Origin: Promethearchaeota archaeon
GTDB lineage: Archaea > Asgardarchaeota > Lokiarchaeia > Sigyniarchaeales > SOKP01
Assembly (NCBI GenBank): GCA_019894975.1
Contig: JAGXNO010000001.1
Location: forward strand, 96,001 to 160,000
DNA length: 64,000 bases
Direction: 5' to 3'
Within the stretch, counting starts at the first letter, position 1; the number at the start of each line of letters is the position of its first letter. Position numbers and translations under genes: made by a program. The notes under the pieces were generated by a model. It saw only the letters and a list, made by a program, of their open reading frames with translations, was not told the DNA's origin and did not search any database. This document shows, in pieces, positions 4,578 through 33,049 of the stretch.

Positions 4578-5333
4578 TTAGAAGATACGTGGAAAGATTT
4601 CTTTTGTATTCTCATAAAGTTGATTTTCTAATTTATCAATAGGAATATTTTTTAAATTAGATATAGTATCTAAGACATCCTTAATCATTGCAGGAGTTCC
4701 GTCTTTTCCTGAATATTTCACTGGTCCATCACTTTCAAGTAGGAGATGTTCTATATCAACTGTTAATACCGTTTTTTTTACTGCTGGTGAATAGCTAATT
4801 GCTGGGGTAATTGAGAAAAAATAACCTCTATCAATTCCTAAATTTAAAAATTCTTCTGGTCCTGAATACCAATGAACATTAACATTAGGTAAGTTAAAAG
4901 AGGGAAGCATATCAAATATTATTTTTTCGCCCCCTTTTGTATGTAGATTCACAGGTAACTCTAACTCCTGAGCAAGTGTTAACATTTGTTCAAAAATATT
5001 TGTTTGAAGTGGGTATAACTCTTTTTCCTTTACAAAATGATGATCTAAACCAATTTCACCAATTGCACAGATATTATTTCTATTAGCTCTTATTAATTTG
5101 ATAACAGATTCTAATTGATTTTCAATATCTTTATTCATCTTTACTTCTTCAGGATGAATTCCTAAGGCAGGATATATTTCATCGTATCGCTCTGATATTT
5201 CCAATATTCTTCCAATGCTTACAGCACTCATTCCAACTGCAATTATCTTTTCAACCCCTACGTTCTTAGCCTCTATAATGACTTGATCTAGAGCTAAGTA
5301 AAGATTTGCGTGGCAGTGAATATCAATTAGAAT
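4578..5333 (-). CDS. tatD: TatD family deoxyribonuclease (probable ATT start at 5333)
   Basis: GIHP, IGEIGLD, LH, HWYSG and ESDGP motifs. The N-terminal metal motif LIDIHCH lies in frame upstream of the ORF-track ATG at 5231. Confidence 0.9.
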   Translation of the reverse strand: MLIDIHCHANLYLALDQVIIEAKNVGVEKIIAVGMSAVSIGRILEISERYDEIYPALGIHPEEVKMNKDIENQLESVIKLIRANRNNICAIGEIGLDHHFVKEKELYPLQTNIFEQMLTLAQELELPVNLHTKGGEKIIFDMLPSFNLPNVNVHWYSGPEEFLNLGIDRGYFFSITPAISYSPAVKKTVLTVDIEHLLLESDGPVKYSGKDGTPAMIKDVLDTISNLKNIPIDKLENQLYENTKEIFPRIF

Positions 5334-5381
5334 TTTTTACACCTCTAATAAAATAATATAGGAATAAAGAAATATTATAGT

Positions 5382-5720
5382 TTACATGGAATTAATTTGT
5401 TCACGAATGAGAGCGATCTTCTTAACTAATTCAAACTTCTTTCTCCTATTATAATCAGATGAATCTAAATGATCTTGAAGAGTTATTAACTCCTTTAATA
5501 AGTATTTTTTTAAATCTTCTTTAGTGAAATGTCCAATATGCTCTGGGAGAGGTTCAATTTTGGCTGCTCTCTTTATTCTTAAGTCAGAAATTGCTTTCGC
5601 TAGTTGGGCTTGAAAGCCGCTAGCCTTACTTGGATCAATATCTCCCAATGTATCTAAAGAAGTTGTTAATCCATCAATGAAGGCTTCTAAATCTTCTACT
5701 TCAATTGTATCATCAGGCAT
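5382..5720 (-). CDS. Hypothetical alpha-helical protein
   Basis: 112 aa ORF filling an intergenic gap; no recognisable motif. Confidence 0.65.
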   Translation of the reverse strand: MPDDTIEVEDLEAFIDGLTTSLDTLGDIDPSKASGFQAQLAKAISDLRIKRAAKIEPLPEHIGHFTKEDLKKYLLKELITLQDHLDSSDYNRRKKFELVKKIALIREQINSM

Positions 5721-5837
5721 TGGAAAACTTGGAAAAATTAAATGTCTCTTTTTTTAAATTCTAGAAACAACTTAGATATTTATTATTGATTATTCTACTT
5801 TAACCTAAATGTAAATTACTAATCCTCAAGCTACGTT

Positions 5838-6458
5838 TTATCTTCTTTTTCTTAATTTTGGAATTAACATCGGAACAGAATTTTTATAATTTTCAAATTT
5901 TTTACCGAATTCTTTTAATAATTCCTTTTCCTCTTTCCACGATAAAAGATAAACTATTAACATTATTATAGGAGTTGCTAAGATAGAATATAAGGAGGAA
6001 AGTAGAATAGAGATTCCTATATGCGATAAAATTGCTCCGAAATATTGTGGATGTCTAATCCGAGAATAGATTCCATTACTAATAACTTCTTCAGGTCTGT
6101 GTGTTTCCGCTACCTTTAAGGTTGTTTCCTTTACCCCTACAATTCCAAACCAAGCACCAATAAATATAATTGGTATTGATATTATTAGATGCAATACTGA
6201 AATTGAAAAACTGAAAAACAATATGAAATCTAAGCTAGCAGAGATTTTGGGGATGGTAAACTTAGGTTGAGGTGAAATCCATATACCAAAAAGAAATAAA
6301 AAAAACCCCCATCCTGAAATTAATCCAAAAATAGTGGTTAATTTCTTTCCCTTCTGTTGTCCATATCGATCCTGGAGTTTTATGTGTTCTAATGACCAGA
6401 AATAGAAAGGTATAATTGAAATTAATCCAATAACACTTGTCAGGAACATGAAGTACAT
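5838..6458 (-). CDS. Isoprenylcysteine carboxyl methyltransferase / PEMT family membrane protein
   Basis: GIYSRIRHPQYFG and EEKELLKEFGKKFENYKNSVP motifs. Confidence 0.85.
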   Translation of the reverse strand: MYFMFLTSVIGLISIIPFYFWSLEHIKLQDRYGQQKGKKLTTIFGLISGWGFFLFLFGIWISPQPKFTIPKISASLDFILFFSFSISVLHLIISIPIIFIGAWFGIVGVKETTLKVAETHRPEEVISNGIYSRIRHPQYFGAILSHIGISILLSSLYSILATPIIMLIVYLLSWKEEKELLKEFGKKFENYKNSVPMLIPKLRKRR

Positions 6459-31554: not shown

Positions 31555-31698
31555 TATAAAAATCCTTATAGAAATGTTTTATGGTTGAGAATAATTTGAG
31601 AGATAAAAATTTTGTATTAATAGTTTAAAAATAATCATATACTAAATAATTATAATTAAATCCAATTTTTAATTTAAAATAATTTAAAAAAAGGGGTT

Positions 31699-32346
31699 AT
31701 GGAACTACTCATGACAATTACCCTTAATTTCTTTGAATATGATCTCGTTTATGTAATAATGATAATCTTGGGGATCATCCAGGGAAGTTCATTAGTTATT
31801 GGATGTCGAATCTTCCATGAAGATTTAAATGGGCTAAGATTTGTAAAAGGTTTAATTATTGCGGGGGGTATACTAACTGGGTTGTACATTACAATCTTCT
31901 TCATACCTACTAGTATAGATGTTTCATCACCGACAAAATCAGAAGAATTAGCATTTTTTTTCATTCTTCTATTAAACTATGATATTTTACCTGACTCTGT
32001 ATTTATAATCTTAGGAATCGCATTATTGCTTTTCTTCTATAAAAATAATCATATTTATCAGAAATTATTATTGTACACTTCAATTGTTTTAGTCACCGGA
32101 AACGTTTTAAGTTTTGTAAATTCTTCACTAGCGCGTTCATTAATACACTTTGATGTTTATACCTATCTTGATTTTGCAGATTATTTTTTAGCTTTAGATA
32201 TAATTTCTTTATGTATTCAACTAGGTGCAATATTGATAATTCTACTATACTGTATTTACTTAAATAATAGAGGTTTTATGATTTTTAGCAGTTTATACTT
32301 GGTTTACTTATTTTCTAGTTTAATCCCCTTACTTCCTTATATATAA
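31699..32346 (+). CDS. Hypothetical membrane protein
   Basis: About 6 TM segments. Confidence 0.65.
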   Translation: MELLMTITLNFFEYDLVYVIMIILGIIQGSSLVIGCRIFHEDLNGLRFVKGLIIAGGILTGLYITIFFIPTSIDVSSPTKSEELAFFFILLLNYDILPDSVFIILGIALLLFFYKNNHIYQKLLLYTSIVLVTGNVLSFVNSSLARSLIHFDVYTYLDFADYFLALDIISLCIQLGAILIILLYCIYLNNRGFMIFSSLYLVYLFSSLIPLLPYI

Positions 32347-32374
32347 ATTACAAAAAAATATCAGGTGTATAAAT

Positions 32375-33049
32375 ATAGATAAAATAGAAAGAAGTTATAT
32401 TTATGTTCTCCCGTTAATTGGTGGAGTTCTTTGTATAATTGCATTTTTTACACCCGCAATGTATACTTTTTTATATAGTGGGTATGGTAGTTATTGGTTT
32501 TGGGGTTTGCACAACTTTGATGGATTATCATTTAACACTGAAAGGATTGATATTTTAATTGTAGGTATAATTATCGGGTTGTTGATTCTTATAAGTGGAA
32601 TAAAATTGGTATATTCTGCCAATTTAGTGAGGGTAGAGAAGAATTCTTTTGAAGATCAAAAAAAAACTTGGTTAGTAGTTCCATCGCTTGCAATTTTGGG
32701 AGCAATTACATGGTTTTTTTATATTTCAAATTCAGGAGATGGCTATTTCGTACCTCCTGGATATGATGTTTGGGACTTTTTTCGCATTGATTTTGGATTA
32801 ATTGGTGCATTTTCCGGGGGAGCTTTATCCTTGTTAGGATATCTCTTTAATAAAGGTATTCGAGAGACAAACATTATGTCTTATTTCGTAATCAACCCAA
32901 GAAAAGAAATCTCTGTTTCATACAAAAAATACCCTATTTCTGAAATACAAAAAAAGCAGCATTTAGAAACGCCTAATTACTGTCCTATGTGCGGATTTAA
33001 AACAGGAACAACACATAAATTCTGTCCTGGATGTGGATTTAAGTTTTAA
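32375..33049 (+). CDS. Membrane protein with C-terminal zinc ribbon (possible ATA start at 32375)
   Basis: C-terminal CPMCG...FCPGCG. The first TM helix (YVLPLIGGVLCIIAFFTPA) lies in frame upstream of the ORF-track ATG at 32459. Confidence 0.7.
   Translation: MDKIERSYIYVLPLIGGVLCIIAFFTPAMYTFLYSGYGSYWFWGLHNFDGLSFNTERIDILIVGIIIGLLILISGIKLVYSANLVRVEKNSFEDQKKTWLVVPSLAILGAITWFFYISNSGDGYFVPPGYDVWDFFRIDFGLIGAFSGGALSLLGYLFNKGIRETNIMSYFVINPRKEISVSYKKYPISEIQKKQHLETPNYCPMCGFKTGTTHKFCPGCGFKF

Follow-up and report, generated by a model that had tools for sequence, protein, structure and literature searches.

Putative AUU, AUA and AUC start codons behind strong Shine-Dalgarno sequences in a Promethearchaeota genome

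Gene starts in the analysed window

The window analysed here is a stretch of 64,000 nucleotides (positions 96,001 to 160,000 of contig JAGXNO010000001.1, assembly GCA_019894975.1; G000:C87:96001-160000) from a Promethearchaeota archaeon of the Lokiarchaeia, whose genome comprises 3.9 Mb with 31.6% GC. It holds about 50 coding open reading frames (ORFs) of at least 100 codons under the analysis filter. Three of its genes, encoding a TatD DNase, a MutY-like glycosylase and a membrane protein with a zinc ribbon, have conserved N-termini that reach 28–50 codons upstream of any ATG, GTG or TTG (NTG), and all three carry ATT or ATA 6–7 nt downstream of GGTG. The 3' end of the 16S rRNA is GGAUCACCUCCU, and because GGTGA and GAGGTG are complementary to it, they are valid Shine-Dalgarno (SD) cores. 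From position, frame, spacing, codon identity and conservation, we conclude that the ATT, ATA or ATC (ATH) codons behind GGTG are very probably start codons. An earlier note on this DNA had singled out ATT 5333, ATT 8557 and ATA 32375, and all three sites read as it described them.

The tatD gene (4578–5333, minus strand, 251 amino acids) matches the TatD Pfam profile and has the leader GAGGTG-TAA-AAA-ATT. The SD GAGGTG lies at 5340–5345 and forms a duplex of −9.7 kcal/mol with the 16S tail; the putative ATT start at 5331–5333 follows GGTG by 6 nt. The GTG within the SD is in frame, but the TAA at 5337–5339, two codons upstream of the ATT, follows it immediately. The first ATG (5231) lies 34 codons past the ATT and downstream of the HxH metal motif, and position 1 of the Pfam profile aligns with residue 4 of the stop-to-stop frame. 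The ATT occupies the exact column where most orthologs carry ATG.

The gene for the HhH-GPD (MutY-like) glycosylase (8557–9417, plus strand, 286 amino acids) has the leader GGTGA-ATT-ATA-ATT. Its SD GGTGA (8546–8550, −7.6 kcal/mol) includes the in-frame TGA at 8548–8550 that bounds the frame, and the first NTG is a GTG at 8707, 50 codons downstream of 8557. The two candidate starts, ATA 8554 and ATT 8557 (together 8554–8559), lie 4 and 7 nt after GGTG, respectively. In the column of ATA 8554, the closest ortholog carries ATG; four other orthologs have ATG, ATG, TTG and a stop-bounded ATT in the column of ATT 8557, and one further ortholog has GTA. The orthologs thus place the start at 8554 or 8557, so that it would be ATH in either case. 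The exact codon is ambiguous, with ATT 8557 favoured because 7 nt is the modal spacing. A GTA in the start column where orthologs have ATG was observed in the mutY gene of genome G021 (L039) and in a gene at about 1731 of contig C55 (plus strand), where it sits behind GGTGA; these are possible GUA starts.

The third gene (32375–33049, plus strand) encodes a membrane protein of 224 amino acids with a weak C-terminal zinc-ribbon match, stored in the database as a form of 196 amino acids from ATG 32459. Its leader reads GGTGT-ATAAAT-ATA, with the SD AGGTGT at 32363–32368 (−6.4 kcal/mol) and the candidate ATA start at 32375–32377, 7 nt after GGTG. The frame stays open for 17 codons upstream of the ATA, yet there is no NTG between TAA 32321 and ATG 32459, and the first transmembrane helix, which is conserved in paralogs, lies inside that interval. 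This case had been rated the weakest of the three, but it proved stronger: the ortholog in genome G002 keeps the ATA, which stands two codons past an in-frame TGA and 8 codons ahead of an ATG, and the paralogs begin with ATG, TTG, ATT or ATA one or two columns off. In three paralogs, GGTG with ATT or ATA stands where the others have ATG or TTG, and a homologue from the 90% cluster has its annotated Met at about the position of the ATA.

Sequencing error or DNA damage at the ATT sites was ruled out, as these are identical in an independent sample and common to several species; sequencing run X4 of another study showed 0 differences over 4952–5811 (tatD) and 8093–8834 (mutY-like). No RNA data set was among the matching samples listed. 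A fourth match to GGTG and ATT in the window, at 25480, was rejected as a false positive, with an ATG at +11 and a Pfam match from residue 16 on. Elsewhere in the window (54094–55638, minus strand), the ATG of a permease gene directly follows the stop of an ABC ATPase gene in the same frame; these are two abutting genes, neither of them broken.

ATH codons behind GGTG across the genome

GGTG precedes only 5.6% of the ATG starts in this genome, which fits the rarity of SDs in Lokiarchaea described in reviews, and the median duplex energy of ATG starts with the 16S tail is −3.1 kcal/mol. The genome-wide test drew on 3021 coding ORFs, using those with GGTG near the 5' end, no NTG at 2–13 nt and none for at least 24 nt. 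Among in-frame codons 5–9 nt after GGTG, 59 of 144 (41%) were ATH, compared with 19 of 323 (6%) out-of-frame triplets (p ~1e-19) and 48 of 433 (11%) in-frame codons 12–23 nt downstream (p ~5e-14). The ATH codons comprised 29 ATT, 21 ATA and 9 ATC, without a clear excess of any other codon. ATH peaked at 7 nt after GGTG (40/61, versus 5/63 at 10 nt), which is the spacing of ATG and TTG starts. The excess of ATH that the earlier note had predicted behind the SD is therefore present, at SD+6–8 nt. It was replicated in G002 (12/17 versus 9/73), and weaker SD classes showed smaller excesses; sixteen further ATH candidates lie behind an in-frame GTG of the SD itself. Ser or Pro made up 33% of the residues following candidate ATH codons, compared with 21% for ATG and 11% for internal Ile, so that this residue looks like position 2 of a protein. 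The excess in the GGTG class alone amounts to about 43 sites, or 1.4% of ORFs; with the other SD classes included, we estimate that about 2–3% of genes may start with ATH, in agreement with the few percent proposed previously.

Comparison of orthologs, filtered against antisense shadow ORFs, revealed a conserved region beginning at least 10 codons ahead of the first NTG in 25 of 510 pairs and, in a second comparison, 9 of 209. By our reading, about 12–15 and 6 of these pairs, respectively, represent probable ATH starts (~3%); two CTG and one GTA start candidates were found besides. Internal nonsense changes affected 2 of 494 whole genes. The rate of ATH, about 3% at a single codon, is thus not explicable by error or decay, and the alternative that these codons arise by change from ATG as often as nonsense changes do finds no support. 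A switch test anchored on ATG gave one ATA and one GTA among 229 (G002) and one ATT among 104 (G005); switches from ATG to ATH are few because close relatives share the ATH. Conservation of ATH in orthologs, which the earlier note had proposed as a test, was seen for tatD, mutY, the membrane zinc-ribbon gene and the gene for initiation factor aIF1.

Some ORFs that appeared forced to start without NTG were rejected. Two or three are TGA cases with probable selenocysteine rather than alternative starts, and one is a split dnaG. The TGA-interrupted conserved frames, probably selenoproteins, comprise two ORFs on contig C108 and one on C84 (all minus strand), and the genome has a tRNA-Sec. The archaeal dnaG, outside the window on the same contig (C87, about 33420–33456, plus strand), is split by an insert of 37 nt between GGT-CAA and ACT-GAA codons; an insert of equal length with a different middle is found in G002 (L082), and none in G005 (L234). 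Its ends pair as a helix of 4 bp that carries two AAA bulges. Cleavage behind the second A in each bulge would restore the frame, which makes the insert a candidate bulge-helix-bulge pre-mRNA intron. Conserved CTG start candidates were observed in a GTGA-led gene at about 12930 of contig C137 (plus strand) and in aIF1 genes of family f9 (L372 and L374).

Of 40 ATH candidates, 32 had a Pfam match, and in 20 of these 32 the domain begins ahead of the first NTG. They include aIF1, TFB (zinc ribbon), uS10, two Rag-type and one Ras-type GTPase, a roadblock protein, V-ATPase D, AOR, ETF (ferredoxin domain), 3-hydroxyacyl-CoA dehydrogenase, Usp and an XPD-type helicase. The functions are mixed, and with this one helicase among the 32 identified candidates the suggested bias towards DNA-processing enzymes was rejected. 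Systematic mis-annotation of N-termini was borne out in part: of 10 candidates compared with public collections, 8 are stored there in truncated form, and the NCBI records of several are truncated, but the NCBI record of the present tatD (P0005) already begins with M at the ATT. Gene finders thus often trim the front ends of ATH-started genes, and database entries of Asgard TFB, aIF1, small GTPases and roadblock proteins lack the N-terminal domains, so that domain surveys and cloning are misled.

The start column of tatD was compared across 76 orthologs, with five unparsed loci left out. It contains 42 ATG, 24 ATT, 2 ATA, 1 ATC, 5 GTG, 1 TTG and 1 ACG, and nothing else. GGTG stands ahead of 26 of 27 ATH starts versus 3 of 48 NTG starts, and the codons between the SD and ATH vary freely, with stops among them in three lineages. 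The tatD tree requires 5 changes of start codon; well-supported branches force at least 4 of these.

A putative mechanism and its alternatives

In the aIF1 gene itself, ATH codons are the sole start candidates from the preceding in-frame stop to the zinc knuckle in 21 of 21 readable sequences of the genus, and its first NTG corresponds to residue 86. In five other Asgard families aIF1 starts with ATA or CTG behind an SD; many others have ATG, GTG or TTG. The protein is full length and aligns with residues 3–101 of Methanocaldococcus jannaschii aIF1, with the zinc knuckle and the basic loop kept (RRKWGR versus KRRFGK in M. jannaschii). W versus Y in this loop does not track start type, and no defect of aIF1, such as its loss or missing basic or aromatic residues of loop 1, was seen by alignment. 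No gene for the initiator tRNA (tRNAi) turned up in the assembly; in four genomes of the genus it has a standard CAU anticodon and three G-C pairs. The relaxed fidelity proposed previously, in the form of a visible defect of aIF1 or tRNAi, is therefore not borne out. Motif searches of the genome for aIF1A and aIF2 beta and gamma found none, recovering aIF2 alpha alone. The tRNAi genes of three genomes of the genus (L337–L339) end in or just before the T-arm, possibly at an intron or integration site.

Lokiarchaeia mostly initiate without a strong SD. Where GGTG(A) pairs with the 16S 3' tail, the codon 6–8 nt downstream would be set in the P site, and an ordinary Met-tRNAi (CAU) may then be accepted on AUU, AUA or AUC, mismatched at the third position only, with the strong SD offsetting the weak start codon. 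We regard it as likely that Met-tRNAi initiates at AUH when positioned by a strong SD in this way. SD positioning with a third-position mismatch is the simplest mechanism, because aIF1 is intact, the tRNAi of the genus is standard and aIF1 of Sulfolobus solfataricus discriminates against AUU in vitro (PMC4705826). aIF1 may set the stringency; with AUU as its own start, it would be subject to negative feedback resembling that of bacterial infC and eukaryotic eIF1. IF3 and eIF1 autoregulate via poor starts (PMC4705826). Regulation of ATH starts by aIF1 is nevertheless a tentative proposal. It is similarly doubtful, if conceivable, that a lineage-wide AUH class is tuned by the level of aIF1, with one loop co-regulating TFB, uS10, Rag-type GTPases, roadblock proteins and others. 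Most ATH starts are probably a tolerated, SD-compensated alternative for tuning output rather than dedicated regulation.

Several points weigh against reading these codons as starts. About one quarter of the 56 genes picked by motif are expected by chance (e.g. 25480). Of the 27 tatD orthologs with ATH, 23 have an in-frame NTG further upstream; in 22 of the 27, the GTG of the SD is itself in frame, three codons up. ATH is strictly forced in only 4 tatD rows from 3 lineages, this genome among them, so that the covariation of SD and codon is partly open to reading as GTG starts, and since kin are not independent, the p-value of 26/27 versus 3/48 overstates the association. Finally, specificity to the lineage is not established because the non-Asgard controls are underpowered.

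This last point bears on the alternative that survives best, in which SD-directed AUH starts at 2–3% of genes are general in AT-rich archaea and have been overlooked, which would leave nothing special about this lineage. It questions how widely such starts occur and leaves their reality untouched. NCBI table 11 includes ATT, ATC and ATA as alternative initiators, which counts for this possibility, as do the near-cognate aIF1 starts in other Asgard families and a published ATT start in a tubulin related to Heimdallarchaeia (PMC13394414). Against it, 40 GGTG genes of G061, from another Asgard family, had NTG and 0 had ATH (200 kb, a small sample), and pooled methanogen loci, also a small sample, gave 16 NTG and 0 ATH, compared with about 176 to 51 in this genome. 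The samples of 400 kb of G005, G032 and G055 and 200 kb of G085 and G061 are too small for firm results. We consider such generality rather unlikely.

Much less probable is that the ATH starts are real but depend on a special device, either a dedicated or modified tRNAi reading AUH, comparable to the mitochondrial f5C tRNA-Met, or editing of the mRNA to AUG. The restriction of the clear excess to ATT, ATA and ATC is a third-position pattern like that of mitochondrial initiation, and the absence of tRNAi from the assembly would agree with it. However, the tRNAi genes of the genus are standard (modifications being invisible in DNA), tRNA-Ile(GAU) begins with G, unlike the A1 of the initiator, and in Escherichia coli with normal tRNA, ATH is likewise the strongest near-cognate class (10.1101/063800). 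Scattered CTG, GTA and ACG starts also occur, and the need for a strong SD fits poor rather than full codon pairing.

Slighter still is the chance that the true start is the GTG inside GGTG and the ATH merely an internal Ile. GTG belongs to the normal starts of archaea (PMC7531240), and in the tatD orthologs noted above it is in frame and open. In all three window genes it is impossible, as TAA follows it in tatD and its frame differs from that of the gene in the other two. Cases with in-frame GTG were left out of the genome-wide test, whose peak at 7 nt is where GTG is out of frame. The free variation, including stops, between this GTG and the ATH of tatD also argues against it, and GUG inside the SD is a known source of mis-annotation (PMC1463019).

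Least probable, and already largely refuted, are short proteins starting at the first downstream NTG or pseudogenes laden with decay or errors: truncated forms are stored in databases, permafrost, where DNA damage is possible, is among the best matching samples and one nonsense change is present in the window, but short forms would lack P-loops, the HxH motif of TatD, the zinc ribbon of TFB and the greater part of aIF1, and identical ATT codons recur across samples and species with few nonsense changes. The sole nonsense change found in the window is the in-frame TAA at 60511–60513 in a response-regulator gene (60373–61245, plus strand), absent from the G002 ortholog.

Comparison with known systems

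Archaeal starts are described as AUG, GUG and UUG (PMC7531240). In the literature searched, of which coverage was incomplete, we found no description of lineage-wide AUH initiation in Asgard archaea and one published Asgard ATT start. That case, atubA of Kariarchaeaceae (PMC13394414), resembles the present genes in its database truncation, its ATT start and its plausibly spaced ribosome-binding site; unlike them, it is a single rare case from another Asgard class, with no genome-wide rule. Weak GUG and UUG starts are known to be offset by a stronger SD (Belinky, Rogozin, Koonin 2017, PMC5622118), and the same pairing of weak codon and strong SD, described there for AUG, GUG and UUG only, would here extend to AUH. 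Mitochondria likewise use AUA and AUU routinely for initiation, but with leaderless mRNAs and a single wobble-modified tRNA-Met (PMC5048346), whereas the starts proposed here depend on the SD in a genus with a standard tRNAi gene.

The closest parallels concern the fidelity factors. E. coli infC, encoding IF3, and pcnB carry AUU behind an SD, so that a fidelity-factor gene is AUU-started there, as aIF1 would be here; only these two genes are confirmed in E. coli (10.1101/063800), whereas here dozens appear to use AUU, AUA and AUC with archaeal aIF1 and aIF2, and the aIF1 feedback is our inference. AUH codons work at 1–2% of AUG in E. coli (10.1101/063800). Eukaryotic eIF1, the homologue of aIF1, likewise has a suboptimal start of its own, through which it autoregulates (PMC4705826), but by an AUG in poor Kozak context with scanning rather than a near-cognate codon positioned by the SD. 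What is new relative to known near-cognate initiation is that it is unusually frequent, dependent on the SD and inclusive of the fidelity factor. If true, the aIF1 feedback loop would place an archaeal forerunner of the stringency control by eIF1 among the closest relatives of eukaryotes, and routine AUH starts in a lineage close to eukaryotes, together with an AUU-started aIF1, make the origin of this type of control testable in cultured Lokiarchaeia.

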